Positions 1 to 35,843 of a DNA stretch of 36,850 nucleotides are shown here, one piece after another (position 1 is the stretch's first letter; the number at the start of each line of letters is the position of its first letter). The notes beneath the pieces are model-generated. The model did no database searches, was not told where the DNA came from, and saw only the letters and a program-made list of their open reading frames with translations. The stretch lies in the IMG/VR virus record IMGVR_UViG_2778261418_000018, positions 1-36,850 of that record. One strand, 5' to 3'. The translations under genes and the position numbers were made by a program. This DNA is from a virus. Taxonomy: Duplodnaviria > Heunggongvirae > Uroviricota > Caudoviricetes.

Positions 1-151
1 TCGTTTCGGCGTAATTTTCAGCAAACGATCAAAAGTGGTGAAAAATATCGTTGACTCATCGCGCCAGGTAAGTAGAATGCAACGCATCGAACGGCGGCAC
101 TGATTGCCAGACGATAATAAAATCAAGTGATTAACTGATTGCTTGATGAAT

Positions 152-227
<76 letters not shown>

Positions 228-281
228 GTTTAAAAGACATCGGCCTCAAGCGGATGTCTGGCTGAAAGGCCTGAAGAATTT

Positions 282-355
282 GGCGCGTTAACAAAGCGGT
301 TATGTAGCGGATTGCAAATCCGTCTAGTCCGGTTCGACTCCGGAACGCGCCTCCA
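282..355 (+). tRNA. cysT: tRNA-Cys, anticodon GCA
   Basis: GGCGCGTTAACAAAGCGGTTATGTAGCGGATTGCAAATCCG...GCGCCTCCA; anticodon loop ATTGCAAAT; second gene of the glyW-cysT-leuZ operon. Confidence 0.9.
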
Positions 356-367
356 CTTTCTTCCCGA

Positions 368-454
368 GCCCGGATGGTGGAATCGGTAGACACAAGGGAT
401 TTAAAATCCCTCGGCGTTCGCGCTGTGCGGGTTCAAGTCCCGCTCCGGGTACCA
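368..454 (+). tRNA. leuZ: tRNA-Leu, anticodon TAA (long variable arm)
   Basis: GCCCGGATGGTGGAATCGGTAGACACAAGGGATTTAAAATCCC...GGGTACCA; 87 nt with class II variable arm. Confidence 0.9.
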
Positions 455-496
455 TGGGAAAAATAAGCATAAAATCAAAGCAATAAGCAGTGTCGT

Positions 497-521
497 GAAA
501 CCACCTTCGGGTGGTTTTTTT
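497..521 (+). terminator. rho-independent terminator of the tRNA operon
   Basis: GAAACCACC-TTCG-GGTGGTTTTTTT hairpin followed by T-run. Confidence 0.8.
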
Positions 522-654
522 GCATTTGCATTTTCTGCAATGGCTGTAAAGTGGCGATGGTGTGGCGATATGCAGAAACAATGATAGTGCACGTCTGTTT
601 AAACTCTAAGGGTGAAGCAGAACTCTCCAGCAACTCATCTGCATTTCGCATATT

Positions 655-775
655 GAACTAGGGCCTTGGTTAAATCAAAATTTTTTCTGGGGTCTTCCCA
701 CTCAACTTCATTTTTCCTCCTACCACCCGCCAAAAGGTGTCTGCGCTAATCTATCTTTTTTAATCTGACAACATC
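655..775. repeat. diverged direct repeat, copy A (~110 bp)
   Basis: AGGGCCTTGGTTAAATCAAAATTTTTTCTGGGG...CGCCAAAAGGTGTCTGCGCTAATCTATCTTTTTTAAT resembles 1660..1780 (by-eye alignment, roughly 70% identity). Confidence 0.6.
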
Positions 776-993
776 CTGAGAGAAGACAAATTCGTTAGAT
801 TTACTGTTTTTCTGCTGCCTCGAATGCTGATGTCTGCAGCACTGATAATAACTCTATCTCTTTGATATAGATCTTTTTTTTGATGAATTGCACGACATAT
901 TATCGTGATGGCACCTTCTTGTTAAAGGTGTTGTACTCCTCATCTCGATTTTATGATGTGGGCTATGATTGGTTAGTAATAGAGTGTATCGGT

Positions 994-1275
994 ATGCGAT
1001 GTGGTTTATTAATGGCAATCTGCCTTTGTTTGGTATCTTTTAGTGGGTATGCAGCAACAGGAAAGTCAGATGCTCAGATCAAGAAAGAAATAATTAAAGA
1101 ATCCATTGAATCTTATCCAGGCAATTGTGCGTGTCCTTATAATCATGCAAGGAATGGTAGTAGATGTGGTGGGCGCAGTGCATATAGCCGTACTGGAGGG
1201 TATGACGTGGTATGTTATGAGAGTGATGTTACCGATGAAATGATCCGGCAATGGAAGCAGGAGAATGCTGAGTAA
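994..1275 (+). CDS. small secreted cysteine-containing protein (signal peptide MRCGLLMAICLCLVSFSGYA; motif GNCACPY...GSRCGGRSAYSRTGGY...CY)
   Basis: ORF 880..1275; N-terminal part of the long ORF is not protein-like, so the internal ATG at 994 preceding a hydrophobic signal sequence is preferred; own terminator downstream. Confidence 0.45.
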   Translation: MRCGLLMAICLCLVSFSGYAATGKSDAQIKKEIIKESIESYPGNCACPYNHARNGSRCGGRSAYSRTGGYDVVCYESDVTDEMIRQWKQENAE

Positions 1276-1352
1276 TCTCTTTTAACAGGTTTGTTGTGCG
1301 AGCATTATGTGCCGTTAACGGTATACTAGCTAGTGAGAGTTCCAAAAAGAAA

Positions 1353-1380
1353 CCCCGCAGTTTTTACGCTGCGGGTTTGT
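1353..1380. terminator. bidirectional hairpin terminator
   Basis: CCCCGCAG-TTTTTACG-CTGCGGG followed by TTTGTT on plus; A-run upstream gives T-run on minus. Confidence 0.65.
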
Positions 1381-1659
1381 TATTCATGTCTATGAGATAG
1401 GGTGCCTTATCGACCTTACCCTGGCAACCGATTGACGGGGGATTACTCCCCCGTCGCGGTTTCCTTACTGCTTACACTGTAAGAACGCCGCAAACTCCGC
1501 TCCCCAGAAGCTCATCCGTATTTCACACAGCGAACCGTGTAGCATCCAGATGATGAGGATTGCCGTCACGCAGAACGTGATGGCCATAAGCGATTTTTGC
1601 GACATAGCGCTTGCTCCTTTTTTGGGGAGGCGCTAACCTATCACTTGCTAAGGTTAGAT

Positions 1660-1780
1660 GGTCAGGGCCTCGGTTAAACAGAAATGTTTTCCGGGGCCTT
1701 TCCACATCTGGCCTTCGGGCATTCCCTCCGACCATCAGCCGAAAGGCACCCGCGCGTAATCTATCGCTTTTTTGTTACTC
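1660..1780. repeat. diverged direct repeat, copy B (immediately downstream of ogr)
   Basis: AGGGCCTCGGTTAAACAGAAATGTTTTCCGGGG...GCCGAAAGGCACCCGCGCGTAATCTATCGCTTTTTTGTTACT; counterpart of 655..775. Confidence 0.6.
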
Positions 1781-1795
1781 CGGCAATTCTGCCTG

Positions 1796-2056
1796 TTAAT
1801 TCTGAGGTAAAGGCAAACTCATCTGACTGTTTCCCCTGTGTGACGCTGGCAACTCATGCCACGGGATACCTTCTGAAGAGTGAACGCCGGAGGCGTGTTT
1901 TGATGTGAATTTATGGAAAGCTTCCAGTGTTGAGAAGCATACGCCGCATTCCAGGTTGTTACACTGGTAATACTTTTGCCGCACGGTGTTTGAATCATTT
2001 TCCGGACGACTGGTGCGGATACGGGCAGATGCGCCACAAAGCGGACAACGGAACAT
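1796..2056 (-). CDS. ogr: Ogr/Delta-type zinc-finger late transcription activator
   Basis: MFRCPLCGASARIRTSR...YYQCNNLECGVCF resembles P2 Ogr (as recalled) with C-x2-C...C-x4-C zinc finger; RBS GGGAGG upstream of ATG at 2056. Confidence 0.8.
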   Translation of the reverse strand: MFRCPLCGASARIRTSRPENDSNTVRQKYYQCNNLECGVCFSTLEAFHKFTSKHASGVHSSEGIPWHELPASHRGNSQMSLPLPQN

Positions 2057-2098: not shown

Positions 2099-3208
2099 TC
2101 ACTCTGTTTCCGCTATCCATTCCGGGATTTTTGCCTCAAGCTCAAGCTGCGTGGTAAAGCCGCTGTTATCAATGGTGTGCTCGGCTTTTGCAATAATCCA
2201 GTCCTGATTATCAATCTCGCTTTTAAATCCTGTTACCGTGCCATGCATTTCGGGGTAGAGTTCTGCACGTCCACGTGCCAGCGTGATGGAAAATGATGCG
2301 GCTCCGCGTTGTAGCTGCTGCCACTTTGCCGCCGCTGCGCGTCTTGCTGCCTGCTCGTTCTGATAAGTCTTGCGTAACACAAACACGTTGCCTTCCGCAC
2401 CTTCCATATAGTCACCTTCACGGCTGCTGCTTTTCTCCTTTTTAGGTTTTGGCGGTTTGCGGCGTTTCACGCTGACTTTTTTCTTTTTCCCGTAATTAAG
2501 ATCAAGCCAGTAAGCGCGTACCCCCGTATACGCCTCGCGGTCAGCAATGCGGAACTGATGGCGATCGCCGTTGCTGCGGGTGATGGAGAACGATGGCAAC
2601 GGCTGGCCCTGTGCGTTCACGCCACCGCCTGGCATGATGAATAACAGATTGCCGCTTTTTACCGTGGTGATTGCGCCCAGCATTTCCGCCATGCGCGTAA
2701 GGAAGGACATGTCGCTTTCTTCGGTCTGGTCGGCGTGGTCGATTTCGATATCCATCAGCATTTCGCTGATTTGCGGTTTCAGGCCGTACCGATGAGCGAT
2801 GGCGGATACCACGCGCTCAACGGTCACATCGTGCCAGGATACTTCACGTTTAACGTTAAATTCATCCCGAAAATCTGCGCTTCTGGCTGAAACAGTCAGC
2901 CTGTCCGGTGGTCCTTCGTGAGCGATTTCATCAACAATGTAGGTGCCTTTTTCAGTCAGCGGTTCCCCTTTCCAGCCAATGAGAACCGTCAGACGCGCGC
3001 CCCGTGGCGGTAGCTGCAACTGGCCATCGGCATCATCCAGCGTGATGGTGAGCTGGTCCGCCTCAAATCCCCGGTTGTCGGTCAGTGACAGGCTCATCAG
3101 GCGGTCTGCTACGCCGGACAGCGTTTTACCCTCCGCGAGAATATCAAAATCCGGCATTTTCACGGGGTCAGTGCCCTGGCTGAGCAATTGCATGGTGGTG
3201 TCGGTCAT
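2099..3208 (-). CDS. D: tail protein D (late control gene D family)
   Basis: LSLTDNRGFEADQLTITLDDADGQLQLPPRGA...SARSADFR...SWHD typical gpD; start moved to internal ATG at 3208 (MTDTTMQLL) preceded by RBS GGGAGGG. Confidence 0.85.
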   Translation of the reverse strand: MTDTTMQLLSQGTDPVKMPDFDILAEGKTLSGVADRLMSLSLTDNRGFEADQLTITLDDADGQLQLPPRGARLTVLIGWKGEPLTEKGTYIVDEIAHEGPPDRLTVSARSADFRDEFNVKREVSWHDVTVERVVSAIAHRYGLKPQISEMLMDIEIDHADQTEESDMSFLTRMAEMLGAITTVKSGNLLFIMPGGGVNAQGQPLPSFSITRSNGDRHQFRIADREAYTGVRAYWLDLNYGKKKKVSVKRRKPPKPKKEKSSSREGDYMEGAEGNVFVLRKTYQNEQAARRAAAAKWQQLQRGAASFSITLARGRAELYPEMHGTVTGFKSEIDNQDWIIAKAEHTIDNSGFTTQLELEAKIPEWIAETE

Positions 3209-3365
3209 CTGTTCCCTCCCTGTGCGGCATGGTCGCATGTGCGTGCGGAAGGGGTTACTGCTTTTTGTTGTCGCCGTGGCGGGAGAACGGCGCAGGGGTG
3301 AGATTACGCGCGTGGTAGGTGATGATTGTTGCTGAATCATTTAACGGATACAAGGGGCTGAAGCT

Positions 3366-4550
3366 ATGAGTGAAACTCGTTTTCATGGTGCCCGTGTTAC
3401 GGAAAATACCGACCTGGTAACAGCGATTAACGATGTTGATTCCAGCGTTATCGGTATCGTGGCAACGGCGGATGATGCGGACGCGAAGCTGTTCCCGCTG
3501 AACAAGCCCACACTGCTGACCCGCGTTAATGACGTGCTGGGAAAATGCGGGACAACGGGGACGCTTTATCGTGCGCTTAAGGCAATCGCAGACCAGGTGA
3601 GCACAAAGGTGATCGTCGTTCGCGTGGCTGAACACAAAGAAGAAGACGGAAAGACGCAGGATCAACTGGTTATCGGTGGTTCTGAGGATGACGGCAGCTA
3701 TACGGGGATGTATGCGCTGCTTGTTGCAGAGCAGGATGAAAGCATCGGATACCGTCCGCGTATTCTGGCAGCGCCGGAGCTGGACACGGAGGCTGTAACA
3801 AAATCCCTGTGCGTGATTGCGGGTAAACTGCGCGCGTTTGTGTATGCCTCATGTCATGGCTGTAACACGATGGCTGAGGCAATTACCTACCGCCAGAAAT
3901 TCAACGAACGTGAGGTGATGCTCTTATGGCCGGACTTCATCGCCTACAACCCGAAAAGTGGCAAAAACGAAACGTTCCCCGCGCCTGCCTATGCGTGCGG
4001 CCTTCGTGCGTACATTGACCATGAGCAGGGCTGGCACAAATCGCTGTCCAACGTTCCGGTTAAAAATGTGCTGGGGATGTCCAGGCATGTGTTCTGGTCG
4101 TTGCAGGCCGAAGACAGTGATGCCAACAGCCTCAACAACAAAGAAATCACGACCATTATTCGTCGCAACGGGTTCCGCTTCTGGGGCAACCGCACACCGG
4201 AAACGAACGCCTACATCTTTGAGGTGTATACCCGAACCGCACAGGTGCTGGCTGATTCAATTGCGGAAGCGCAGTTTGAAACCATCGACAGTCCACTGAC
4301 GCCTGCGAACGTGAAAGATGTTATCAGTGCCATCAGGGCAAAACTGGATTCACTGGTTACTGCCGGGAAACTGATTGGGGCGTCGTGCTGGTATGACGTG
4401 GTGGATAACGGCACCACGAATTTACGTCAGGGGCGCGTGCGTATTCGCTACAAATATACGCCTGTTCCCCCGCTGGAAGACATGGAGCTTTACCAGTCGT
4501 TTACTGATGAATTCTTTGGTCCCGCATTTGCGGTGCTGGGAGGTGCCTGA
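3366..4550 (+). CDS. FI: tail sheath protein FI
   Basis: 394 aa, P2 FI-like size and sequence (MSETRFHGARVTENTDLVTAINDVD...). Confidence 0.9.
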   Translation: MSETRFHGARVTENTDLVTAINDVDSSVIGIVATADDADAKLFPLNKPTLLTRVNDVLGKCGTTGTLYRALKAIADQVSTKVIVVRVAEHKEEDGKTQDQLVIGGSEDDGSYTGMYALLVAEQDESIGYRPRILAAPELDTEAVTKSLCVIAGKLRAFVYASCHGCNTMAEAITYRQKFNEREVMLLWPDFIAYNPKSGKNETFPAPAYACGLRAYIDHEQGWHKSLSNVPVKNVLGMSRHVFWSLQAEDSDANSLNNKEITTIIRRNGFRFWGNRTPETNAYIFEVYTRTAQVLADSIAEAQFETIDSPLTPANVKDVISAIRAKLDSLVTAGKLIGASCWYDVVDNGTTNLRQGRVRIRYKYTPVPPLEDMELYQSFTDEFFGPAFAVLGGA

Positions 4551-5062
4551 TGGCTGTACCAAAACATCTTCGCTTTTTTACGTTGTTTGTGGATGGTGAA
4601 AACGAAGTGGGTAAAGTGACATCCGTCACGCCGCCCAAACTGACGCGCAAAACCGACAGTTATCGTGGTGGTGGCATGATGGGGGCGGTAAGTATTGATC
4701 TCGGTCTGGACGACTCCGCGCTTGATGCGAGCTTTGTCATGGGGGGAGCTGTTCGTGCACTGTTCCTTAAGTATGGCGGCACGATTGACGGCACGCTGCT
4801 GCGTTTTGCGGGTGAATATTACACCGATGCAGAAAGCGATCTGTATGAAATCGAGATGCGCGGGCGTGTGACGGAAATTGATATGGGGGAGGCCAAACAG
4901 GGCGAAGCCACATCACACACATACGCTGTCAAAAACACCTACTACAAGCTGAGTGTTAACGATCGCCCGCTGTGGGAAATCGACCTGTTGAACCACATCT
5001 ACCGGAAGGACGGCAAGGACATTGTGCCTGACCGCATTCGCTCCGCGCTTGGGCTTGGCTGA
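4550..5062 (+). CDS. FII: tail tube protein FII
   Basis: 170 aa; start overlaps FI stop (TGATG); P2 FII-like. Confidence 0.9.
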   Translation: MAVPKHLRFFTLFVDGENEVGKVTSVTPPKLTRKTDSYRGGGMMGAVSIDLGLDDSALDASFVMGGAVRALFLKYGGTIDGTLLRFAGEYYTDAESDLYEIEMRGRVTEIDMGEAKQGEATSHTYAVKNTYYKLSVNDRPLWEIDLLNHIYRKDGKDIVPDRIRSALGLG

Positions 5063-5117
5063 TAAGTAATATGCAGGCGACGCAGTGCGTCGCCTCTGAC
5101 TGAAAAGGAGACAACTG

Positions 5118-5492
5118 ATGAAAGACATCGATACTGAAACCCGGAATAACACCGTAGCGGATGATGTGACGGCAGGTGAGGATATGGCTGTCGAACGTGG
5201 TGTAAAACTTTCCCGGCCAATTGAGCGTGGTGCCGAAAAAATCACATATGTGGAAATCACCGGGGCTATTGAGCAGGCGGGATCCCTGCGTGGTCTGTCG
5301 CTGTCTGATGTGCTGAATCTGAAAGCGGATACCATGTTCACGCTGTTGCCTCGCGTGACCTCGCCACGACTGGATGAAGTGATGATTAAAAAAATGTCGT
5401 CACGCGATTTTATTCAGTTGTGCGCTGCGGCTGTAAATTTTATGAGCGAGCCAGACTCTGGCGCGAAGAGCGTGCAGGAGACGGCAGCGTAA
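5118..5492 (+). CDS. E: tail assembly chaperone E (0-frame product); E+E' made by -1 frameshift into the frame open 5390..5656
   Basis: Position between FII and T; overlapping -1 frame ORF with no good start; slippery candidates AAATTTT (5435..5441) and A7 (5388..5394). Confidence 0.7.
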   Translation: MKDIDTETRNNTVADDVTAGEDMAVERGVKLSRPIERGAEKITYVEITGAIEQAGSLRGLSLSDVLNLKADTMFTLLPRVTSPRLDEVMIKKMSSRDFIQLCAAAVNFMSEPDSGAKSVQETAA

Positions 5493-11730: not shown

Positions 11731-13833
11731 TTAAATACTCCCCGCGTTATACCACGTCCCATTAATGCAATACTGAATTGGCCTTGCCTGAGTTGTATCA
11801 ATTAATGCATCACGGTTTCCGTTAACTGAACCCGTAACGACATAACCTGACCTGTCAGACCAGCCGGGGCCATTCCATGTCTGAACAGATGACAGACCGC
11901 CAAGGCGAATACCTGTAATAAACCTTGAGTTACATTCTGCCTGCGTGTATGCACCAACATCTCCCGCAGAGGGTTTGCGGGTCGTGGTGTAAAACTCTGA
12001 CCAGTCAGCCTCAAATCCATAACCATCACGCGCTGAACGATAAAAAATACCGCCGTTCCTGTAATTCACGCGGAACTGTACAGCAGGGCAGCTCCCCGTA
12101 TTCATATTGAAGTGGAGGATTAATGTCGATGCGCCACCAATGTTTGCGTTATAGACCCCGCTATTCCAGTTCCAGCCAACAGCTTTATCATTTCCGACAG
12201 TGCTTCCTGTTTGCCCTAAAGCAAATGCAGGTTGTTGATTTTTCGTGTTGTAGTCTCGTCGCCAGCCAGGAGCGTAAGCATCACCATGATTAATATAAGT
12301 GAATTGAGCGTTATTAATTCCGCCACCGCTGGACGTGCTCGGCGTAGTAACGCGTATGGTCATTGCGCCGCGAGTGCCAATAACTTCCACCACAGCACCT
12401 GCAAGACAAATATTTCCGCAACCTGTATCTGTAATGACCTTATTATTTGCATAAGCCCATGAGCCTTTGCACATCCAGTAAGGATGGTTAAATGCTCCCT
12501 GACTCTCCAGCCACGAAATAAATTGCGCGGTTGTCCAGACCTGACTATCGCCACCAATATTCAGCCATGCGCTATATGCGCGGCAGGCCCCAATATTTTT
12601 GGTGAAGGTATCTTTTCCCGGAATATCTGCGCCGTTCTGGTTTTTCTGTAATGCGCCAGAAGCCTGATTTACCGTTTCCTGTAAACCGAGATATTCGATA
12701 ACAGCGGCAACGGTCGATTTCGCAAGAATATCCCGCCCGACTTTTGTCAGGGTTGCCAGGCTGGCGACATCATTCCCCGTAAAATACGGAAACTTGTCTG
12801 CCGCAGTAGCAAGCCCGGCCAGCGCCGTCAGGGTGGCATCTTTCGGTTGCTTACCCGCAAGCGCGTTAGTCATGGTGGTCGCAAAATTCGGGTCGTTTCC
12901 CAGCGCCGCCGCTAACTCGTTCAGCGTATTCAGTGCGTCAGGTGACGAATCTACAAGGGCGGCAATCGCGGCCATCACATAAGCCGTGCTTGCGATCTGA
13001 GTATTATTAGTACCTTTTGGCGCAGTTGGCGTTGTTGGCGTTCCAGTCAGCGCCGGGCTGTTTAATGGGGCTTTCTTGTTCGTTTCATCCATTACCGCCT
13101 TAACCGCTTTTGGTGTCGCTGCCAGCGTTTCAGACGTGCTGTTGGTTGCATTGCTGAGCTGGACTATCCCTTTTCGTGCCGTCGTGGCGTCCTGAGCGGT
13201 ATATTTTCCGTTAGCCAGGTCATACGCGGCCTTAACCGCTTTCGGCGTTGCGGCCAGCGTTTCAGAATCGCTGTTAGTGGCGCTACTGAGTTGAACAAAG
13301 CCTTTTGCGGTCAGCGAGGCATCCGGGTGACGTCGTGACTGTTCATGCTCTTTCAGTTTGTCATCCACGTAATCCACTGTGGCCATCACCATGGTGTTAT
13401 CCACGGTAAGCGCCACGGTGGCAGTGCTGGATACGGTCAGAATGGTGCGAAATGTTTGTGCACGTCCGGACCCTTCGGCAACGGTTGGCTTGTAACTTTC
13501 GGCAGTATTGCCCACCGCGATTAAATCGCCGTGCTCATCAAATACACCAATTTCCCGGATCCAGAATCCGCCCGTTTCAGGAGGAATAACCAGCTCTGCA
13601 ATAATGCGGTTCTGATGTGTTGCGTCCAGGATGACGCGATTAACAGTATGTCGCCACACCTCATGCACCAGACGGGTCTGCTTACTGTCAGGTGTGGGCA
13701 ATGTACCGCCACCGTCGCCCACGGCCATATGAGTCAGGCGGACAGGCTTACCATCTGGCGCGGCTGCCTGCGCTAATTTTTTTGCACCCGTATCGGTGAT
13801 AACGGTTTTAAATTTTCGTGTTGTGGTACTCAT
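11731..13833 (-). CDS. H: tail fibre protein H (constant N-terminus plus currently joined variable C-terminus)
   Basis: 700 aa; tandem SETLAATPKAVKA repeats; crossover site inside the coding sequence at 12676..12701. Confidence 0.85.
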   Translation of the reverse strand: MSTTTRKFKTVITDTGAKKLAQAAAPDGKPVRLTHMAVGDGGGTLPTPDSKQTRLVHEVWRHTVNRVILDATHQNRIIAELVIPPETGGFWIREIGVFDEHGDLIAVGNTAESYKPTVAEGSGRAQTFRTILTVSSTATVALTVDNTMVMATVDYVDDKLKEHEQSRRHPDASLTAKGFVQLSSATNSDSETLAATPKAVKAAYDLANGKYTAQDATTARKGIVQLSNATNSTSETLAATPKAVKAVMDETNKKAPLNSPALTGTPTTPTAPKGTNNTQIASTAYVMAAIAALVDSSPDALNTLNELAAALGNDPNFATTMTNALAGKQPKDATLTALAGLATAADKFPYFTGNDVASLATLTKVGRDILAKSTVAAVIEYLGLQETVNQASGALQKNQNGADIPGKDTFTKNIGACRAYSAWLNIGGDSQVWTTAQFISWLESQGAFNHPYWMCKGSWAYANNKVITDTGCGNICLAGAVVEVIGTRGAMTIRVTTPSTSSGGGINNAQFTYINHGDAYAPGWRRDYNTKNQQPAFALGQTGSTVGNDKAVGWNWNSGVYNANIGGASTLILHFNMNTGSCPAVQFRVNYRNGGIFYRSARDGYGFEADWSEFYTTTRKPSAGDVGAYTQAECNSRFITGIRLGGLSSVQTWNGPGWSDRSGYVVTGSVNGNRDALIDTTQARPIQYCINGTWYNAGSI
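12676..12701. other. gix/hix-like recombination crossover site (right, inverted)
   Basis: Plus strand TTCCTGTAAACCGAGATATTCGATAA, reverse complement TTATCGAATATCTCGGTTTACAGGAA; inner arm and ~55 bp of adjoining sequence identical to the left copy. Confidence 0.75.
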
Positions 13834-35495: not shown

Positions 35496-35843
35496 ATGAA
35501 AGTAAAAAAGGTTCAACTATTAGTTACTTTTTTATCTATGTTTTCTTTTTCCGCCGTCGCAATGCCTTTTAAAAATATTGAACGTGAGAGTTTCAATGGG
35601 GTATGGCCATTTAATACTGATGAGGTTCAATTACAGTGTCTTGATGGTAATCCTTATGTGATGAATTTTGACGATAATAAGTTATATGCGCTTACAGGTT
35701 TGGCTCGAATAAAAGGTAAAACATTTGGTGCGTTACCGTTAGATAACAATAATCCATTTTGGCTAGATAATGATGCCGCCCCAGGGTTAAAAAAGAGTCT
35801 GGGGGATGTCACTAAGGCTGCATTTGATTTATGTGATAAGTAA
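35496..35843 (+). CDS. secreted/periplasmic small protein, YebY (DUF2511)-like
   Basis: Signal peptide MKVKKVQLLVTFLSMFSFSAVA; two Cys; W-FN--EV-L-C--GN-YV pattern resembles YebY as recalled. Confidence 0.55.
   Translation: MKVKKVQLLVTFLSMFSFSAVAMPFKNIERESFNGVWPFNTDEVQLQCLDGNPYVMNFDDNKLYALTGLARIKGKTFGALPLDNNNPFWLDNDAAPGLKKSLGDVTKAAFDLCDK

Follow-up and report, generated by a model that had tools for sequence, protein, structure and literature searches.

The window, i.e., the whole stretch of 36,850 nucleotides that was analyzed, starts with the glyW-cysT-leuZ tRNA operon of E. coli, continues into a P2-like prophage and ends with the stop codon of the prophage integrase gene (int). Between the tRNA operon and ogr lie, from left to right, the ogr-side arm of the phage attachment site, a first copy (copy A) of a diverged direct repeat, a small moron cassette carrying the gene ORF93, and a hok/sok module that contains the second copy of the repeat (copy B) (Table 1). 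The genes ogr and D are adjacent in the window (2056 and 2099), with no insert between them; in a close relative (L032 2095-4010), a Thoeris-like pair consisting of a SIR2/STALD protein and a TIR protein is located between ogr and D. Farther along the window, the structural-gene part holds another direct repeat (13097-13192 and 13229-13324; 96 nt, 74% identical, 132 nt apart). Next to int, on its upstream side and in the same orientation, lies a gene for a DUF2511 protein whose N-terminus resembles a signal peptide (35496-35843); it is possibly another lysogenic-conversion gene.

Table 1. Features at the leuZ end of the prophage (positions are those of the window)
Feature	Position	Strand	Remarks
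tRNA genes (called)	152-227, 282-355, 368-454		
Operon terminator	497-518		
attL duplication	400-522	+	leuZ (tRNA-Leu) 3' half from the anticodon loop, plus operon terminator; 123 bp that recur after int in STLEFF_47
ogr-side attP arm	523-597		GTGGCGAT repeats at 551-558 and 562-569 (putative Int arm-type sites)
hok-A coding remnant	598-657	-	codons ~22-45; frameshift by a 4-nt deletion; aligns with 1465-1545
Copy A	658-775	-	decayed promoter (-10 TAGATT, 748-753) and leader (+1 to ~+95); 74% identity to copy B
Sok terminator-type hairpin remnant	660-696	+	AGGGCCUUGG...CUGGGGUCUU; without Sok promoter or 5' tail
Moron cassette, independent	798-1283	+	486 bp
ORF93	994-1275	+	small Cys-rich protein, 93 aa, N-terminal hydrophobic segment
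Module B	1342-1795	-	hokW-like hok/sok type I toxin-antitoxin
hok-B 3' UTR	1342-1464	-	fold-back element (fbi) ~1399-1450; terminator 1354-1375
hok-B toxin gene	1465-1605	-	46 aa; Pfam HOK_GEF
hok-B leader and promoter	1606-1795	-	includes copy B (1660-1780); -35 TTGCCG 1781-1786, -10 TAGATT 1758-1763, +1 ~1751
Putative sok-B	1611-1703	+	-35 TTGCTC 1611-1616, 17 nt, -10 TAACCT 1634-1639
Putative Sok-B RNA	~1646 to 1703	+	ends in hairpin 1664-1700
ogr	1796-2056	-	late transcription activator of the P2-like prophage; Pfam Ogr_Delta, 52.3 bits
Gene D	2099-3340	-	

The prophage boundary at leuZ

In E. coli K-12, the yecA spacer follows directly after the leuZ terminator. In strain STLEFF_47 (L006), whose int end is 100% identical to that of the window, int is followed by ~160 bp, then by a second leuZ 3' half with its terminator, and then by the K-12 leuZ-yecA spacer (L006 4452-4690). 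This recurrence defines the att duplication as window positions 400-522, which implies that all DNA from 523 onward is inserted and that copies A and B both lie within the prophage. An initial inspection of the letters alone (the sequence-only reading) had located the two copies in the stretch that separates the tRNA operon from the end of the prophage, with copy A just behind the tRNA terminator; both copies turn out to be inside the element, and copy A is not adjacent host DNA but lies 135 bp inside the left arm of the prophage. Its tentative assignment of copy B to the prophage end beside ogr holds. The sequence-only reading had also proposed that the att core be sought at the int end, where the leuZ 3' half and the terminator are found; the attR arm there resembles neither copy of the repeat. 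Judged by these alignments, the corrected left end of the prophage is inside leuZ. The attL copy in the window differs by two bases from both K-12 and attR (AAAAATAAGCAT versus AAAGATAAGAAT).

The integrase shares 58% identity with HP1 Int. The motif GTGGCGAT, which occurs in the ogr-side arm, is also present twice just past the int stop codon in STLEFF_47 and once in the arm of a related Salmonella prophage, and the GTGGCGAT-type repeats on both arms may represent arm-type Int sites. Homology between E. coli and Salmonella, as detected by blastn, spans window positions 1-573. This integrase is present in a single phage record (520873), which covers an excerpt of a prophage and breaks off within hok; phage records thus provide no contiguous attP. 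The integrase was found in 599 genomes and the copy A region in 646 genomes, and every E. coli instance found has either the same layout or an IS-disrupted version of it. Insertions of IS elements recur at the att-proximal end (L007 ~2900-5378, L001 4832-6101, L028 ~790-2100, L003 3250-5200): ISEc12 lies within ORF93 in STLEFF_47, hok-ogr has given way to IS30 in O157:H7, one viral contig has an IS immediately to the right of copy A, and in strain GF124.3, copy A is cut by IS1 and ISVsa5.

Copy B and the hok/sok module next to ogr

Smith-Waterman alignment of 523-1000 with 1340-1830 yields a single colinear match, 660-761 versus 1664-1773, with 82 of 111 columns identical (74%) and a score of 59, compared to 18.9 +/- 2.0 (maximum 29) for 1000 dinucleotide shuffles. 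At a z of ~20 over these controls, the diverged colinear repeat described by the sequence-only reading is real. Alignment of 640-800 with 1645-1805 by MAFFT gives a column identity of 76%, and no other place in the rest of the window, on either strand, exceeds a repeat alignment score of 23.

Copy B is embedded in the promoter and leader of a hok gene. The hok-B product matches HOK_GEF (PF01848) over residues 7-44 of 46 with 30.2 bits (cut-off 22), and the ORF is annotated as Hok/Gef family in RefSeq relatives. The Rfam sok model (RF01794), which we take to describe the hok mRNA leader, judging from the R1 hok mRNA sequence, aligns over its full length (1-157) with positions 1751 down to 1617 on the minus strand (42.7 bits, E 1.4e-7; gathering score 59). 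Of the 20 pairs in the 5' hairpin of this leader, 16-20 are retained across 14 B-type leaders, which come from E. coli, Salmonella and an Stx phage. The first 40 nt of the mRNA form a duplex with its last 110 nt (tac-fbi) at a calculated -44.3 kcal/mol; such a 5'-3' fold-back by tac and fbi defines hok mRNAs, the mechanism of which has been summarized (PMC9841398).

On the plus strand, the region 1611-1703 appears to be laid out as a gene for an antisense Sok: a separate promoter is followed by a 5' tail and a terminator hairpin. This layout was assigned by analogy with the sok sequence of R1 and with sokW (PMC8621323). The hairpin at 1664-1700 folds at -30.8 kcal/mol (z -4.75), and the -10 element of sok-B is kept as TAACCT or TATCCT across B-type leaders. 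Module B thus appears to be intact, and it is probably active by analogy with hokW-sokW, an experimentally proven type I toxin-antitoxin system, in which Hok is toxic and Sok neutralizes it (PMC8621323). The sequence-only reading had also considered a small RNA in each copy: for copy B, this is borne out by the hok mRNA leader and the predicted antisense Sok, but in copy A (searched over 560-860), Rfam sok has no match at E<=10.

Read along its minus strand, module B starts with the promoter and the 5' hairpin (tac), continues with the Sok target hairpin and the ribosome-binding site of hok, and, after the gene for the 46-aa toxin, closes with the 3' fold-back element and a terminator; a short antisense Sok would be made from the plus strand over 1646-1703. 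By the established hok/sok mechanism, the full-length hok mRNA would be held closed through pairing of its 5' and 3' ends, and trimming at the 3' end would activate it. The activated mRNA would be neutralized by the unstable Sok via cleavage by RNase III; when the supply of Sok ends, it would be translated to yield the membrane toxin.

Among 11 haplotypes, copy B has a nucleotide diversity (pi) of 0.044 and the hok-B coding sequence one of 0.012. The toxin gene is the least variable part of module B, and positions 1641-1690, which comprise the 5' tail of Sok and the first part of its hairpin, are among the most variable (pi 0.127). This pattern would fit a diversification of Sok-hok recognition specificity between prophages.

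The homology of module B with P2-like phages at other att sites begins at ~1342, and the element from ~1342 to ogr is the outermost one, next to the host junction, in P2-like prophages that occupy ihfA and serS. Module B also occurs in the phages P88, Chuche and Xuanwuvirus, and phage records name the P2-like copy “MokW-like host killing.” This distribution bears on one of the explanations offered by the sequence-only reading, namely that the repeats are the old and new att-proximal arms of two successive integrations at one site. Since the B sequence is found with other integrases in the ihfA and serS prophages, as well as in lambdoid Stx phages, it shows no linkage to this att site. Moreover, the att duplication is limited to 400-522, the attR arm of STLEFF_47 aligned with copy A or copy B scores 16, which is the shuffle mean, and no second att core was found between the copies. 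The position of copy A near the tRNA and beside the putative integrase arm sites would agree with such arms, as would the frequent IS rearrangement of P2-like prophages at the leuZ locus; however, both copies belong to hok modules, and we consider a succession of integrations to be highly improbable.

Copy A and the moron between the copies

Read in the sense of hok, the alignment of copy A with copy B begins at the -10 TAGATT and stops where the Sok target hairpin ends. The homology extends beyond what the sequence-only reading had noted: leftward of a ~120 bp deletion in copy A, it resumes in 598-657, where 45-47 of 65 positions are identical to the hok codons in 1465-1545, with a z of 6.5 for the haplotype of the window and of ~11 for two other haplotypes (0 of 1000 shuffles match the score). 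Global alignment of the A and B modules is uninformative beyond the leader, and it was local and multiple alignment that revealed the coding remnant. Locally, the sequence left of the leader matches within the hok coding sequence (623-650 with 1500-1527), and when nine A haplotypes are aligned together with seven B haplotypes, the A leader is seen to be fused directly to hok codons ~22-45. Several A haplotypes still read GSLCEIR, where B has GSLCEIRMSFWGAEFAAFLQCKQ, before a shared 4-nt deletion shifts the frame.

With the ~120 bp deletion, copy A has lost the promoter and 5' tail of sok together with the ribosome-binding site and start codon of hok and the N-terminal (membrane-spanning) half of the toxin. 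Copy A contains no homologue of the sok promoter or of the 5' recognition tail, the sequence upstream of 657 being hok coding remnant, and no ORF for a Hok-family toxin exists in 598-775, which retains frameshifted codons ~22-45 only and no start. The 3' UTR with its fbi is absent from copy A as well; the hok remnant abuts the attP arm, and the border between the two is approximately where the homology of the Salmonella arm ends.

What is left of the leader is decayed. Of the 20 pairs of the 5' hairpin, 10-11 are left in seven of seven haplotypes, which share a 5-nt deletion there, three identical indels are common to all copy A haplotypes, and a -35-like TTGTCA is separated from the -10 element by 12 nt, not 17. 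On both strands, copy A folds no better than shuffled sequences (z +1.2), and the hairpin at 660-696 alone is not significant (-13.3 kcal/mol, z -1.06). Among the 51 columns that are invariant across the B-type (working) leaders, 11 are altered in copy A, eight of these 11 from GC to AT, and the GC content of copy A is 41% versus 55%. In R1 hok, single substitutions at the 5' end of the mRNA abolish function (PMC9841398).

The homology of the leader together with the colinear and significant coding remnant identifies copy A, as judged from sequence, as a hok pseudogene that descends from a hok/sok module. The resulting interpretation, to which we assign a probability of roughly 0.85, is that the repeats are the paralogous 5' control regions of two hok/sok modules at the ogr-side, att-proximal end of the prophage, of which module B is intact and module A is a pseudogene. 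Copy A itself is most likely inert and passively carried. Among the RefSeq records listed, no feature is annotated under the match to copy A, and the locus is not mentioned in a published account of prophage Pas sRNAs.

Instead of a pseudogene, copy A could be a retained functional RNA, e.g., an orphan Sok-like hairpin, a decoy target for Sok-B, or a promoter directed leftward across attL. The relic persists across lineages that are ~10% apart, the -10 TAGATT and an adjacent T-run are conserved in all haplotypes but one, and the plus-strand hairpin, as read by eye, keeps 8-10 of 10 pairs via G-U in the haplotypes. The changes that preserve G-U pairing, however, are C->T and G->A transitions, as predicted by neutral decay, and positions that are invariant in working leaders are mutated with a GC->AT bias. 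In addition, the sok promoter and the 5' recognition tail, the normal promoter spacing and a fold better than that of shuffled sequences are all missing, for copy A as a whole as well as for its hairpin. Among 11 haplotypes, copy A is as diverse as the arm (pi 0.099) and similar in this respect to the spacers (0.10-0.15), although the arm, which is expected to bind integrase, is an imperfect baseline. The block around the -10 element (742-775) is better conserved than 660-740. The pairing of the hairpin via G-U and the conserved -10 block leave room for some residual function, but we regard retention of copy A as a functional RNA as quite unlikely. More specifically, it is very unlikely that the hok-A leader is kept as an RNA, either because its remaining Sok-type hairpin or Sok-target-like sequence serves as a decoy or orphan that tunes hok-B/sok-B, or as the product of a promoter across attL, antisense to leuZ. 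If the latter were true, a residual promoter in copy A would make the control of the toxin or the expression of the tRNA dependent on lysogeny.

Two further candidates in copy A were dismissed. A weak Rfam match to Esr41, an sRNA of EHEC (12.2 bits, E 8.8), is attributed to chance, since the O157:H7 locus showed nothing. An ORF of 13 codons (MKLSGKTPEKILI), which follows AGGAGG, a strong ribosome-binding site, and runs from 711 to 670 on the minus strand, is probably meaningless, since its ATG reads ATA in one A haplotype (L001).

The 1-kb cassette that the sequence-only reading had perceived between the repeats is composed of the moron and, for the rest, of the hok-B coding sequence and 3' UTR. 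The cassette is found with 84% identity in another E. coli context, beside a P-type ATPase and with no hok nearby (L012), and the moron also occurs in IS-rich islands. ORF93 has 260 homologues (in Escherichia, Salmonella, Oxalobacter, Pseudomonas and metagenomes); a comparison with Pfam returned no family above threshold. The low diversity of the moron (pi 0.028) suggests that ORF93 is a real gene.

The alternative that the repeats are flanks of an inserted moron was likewise raised by the sequence-only reading; such flanks would be duplicated ones, produced by target duplication or serving as recombination sites. A moron does sit between the copies, and the end of copy A is 23 bp from its left edge, but copy B is 377 bp away from the right edge, with the hok-B coding sequence and 3' UTR intervening. 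Elsewhere, the cassette comprises 798-1283 only and occurs without the repeats (L012, L035, L036), and in Salmonella, the same moron is found on the opposite side of a truncated hok leader. A target-site duplication, moreover, does not resemble 110 bp at 74% identity. Thus, the inserted moron stands, but its flanks are not the repeats, and we give this origin of the repeats next to no credence.

Origin of the pair and comparison with known systems

In a Salmonella enterica leuZ prophage of the same family (L014 3340-4545), three hok/sok leaders are arranged in tandem with a 500-bp period. This array contains two intact 46-aa hok genes; the third leader is complete, but its hok is cut at codon 6, where an ORF93-type moron starts. 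One of the Salmonella leader paralogues reaches 64.4 bits against RF01794. Based on this array, tandem and partly destroyed hok modules that are interleaved with morons seem to be typical of this prophage end. By the interpretation as two hok modules, A and B probably began as a local tandem pair, as in the Salmonella relative, and the indels common to all haplotypes suggest that A decayed before the E. coli lineages split. Alternatively, A may have been acquired from a second phage.

An intact hok of the A type was sought in several ways. An A-specific 20-mer retrieved 12 loci from viral contigs, all with the E. coli architecture or disrupted by IS elements, and none with an intact A-type hok; two A-specific patterns had no match in genome contigs. 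The contexts of diverged ORF93 homologues did not contain such a gene either, but provided the Salmonella array and the boundaries of the cassette. A blastn search of phage records with 523-1830 returned module B only and never copy A. As an intact A-type hok turned up in none of the relatives, the ancestral state given here is a reconstruction.

New at this locus are a hok pseudogene that had escaped annotation and a revised boundary of the prophage, and the value of the analysis lies mainly in annotation, as the true left end of this prophage family is set within leuZ. The ogr-att end of P2-like phages gathers tandem hok/sok modules in various states of decay, along with other morons. A pair of an intact and a decayed module is an ordinary by-product of prophage evolution, and the understanding of type I toxin-antitoxin systems and of phage integration is unchanged. 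The locus does offer a natural pair of a working and a dead hok leader, in which the dead copy is altered at positions that are invariant in working leaders.

With regard to integration, the closest likeness is to HP1, a Haemophilus phage that integrates into a tRNA-Leu gene. As in HP1, attP here holds the 3' part of tRNA-Leu, starting in the anticodon loop, which implies that the tRNA is rebuilt upon integration. Unlike in HP1, integration takes place in E. coli and targets leuZ, a gene of the glyW-cysT-leuZ operon; the backbone is that of a P2-like phage, and the arm sites are putative.

Module B is 82% identical over ~375 bp to hokW of the Stx phage Sp5, and it shares with hokW-sokW a Hok-family toxin, a predicted antisense Sok that is complementary to the 5' UTR, and the architecture of the leader. 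In contrast to hokW, it resides beside attP on a P2-like (Peduoviridae) prophage, not on a lambdoid one, and Sp5 has no counterpart of copy A. The similarity to hok/sok of R1 (RF01794, PF01848) extends to the tac/fbi fold-back, a GAGG that follows the Sok target hairpin, overlap of the Sok promoter with the ribosome-binding region of hok, and a 3' terminator. However, the two are distant in sequence, with an Rfam score under the gathering threshold, the toxin of module B has 46 aa compared to 52, and the mok frame of module B is uncertain.

Decayed hok loci are well known. The hokA-E loci of E. coli K-12, as Pedersen and Gerdes reportedly described in 1999, are disabled by IS elements, mutations and rearrangements. 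Copy A is similarly disabled, by a deletion, a frameshift and point mutations, but unlike the K-12 loci, it is located in the arm of a prophage, in tandem with an intact paralogue.
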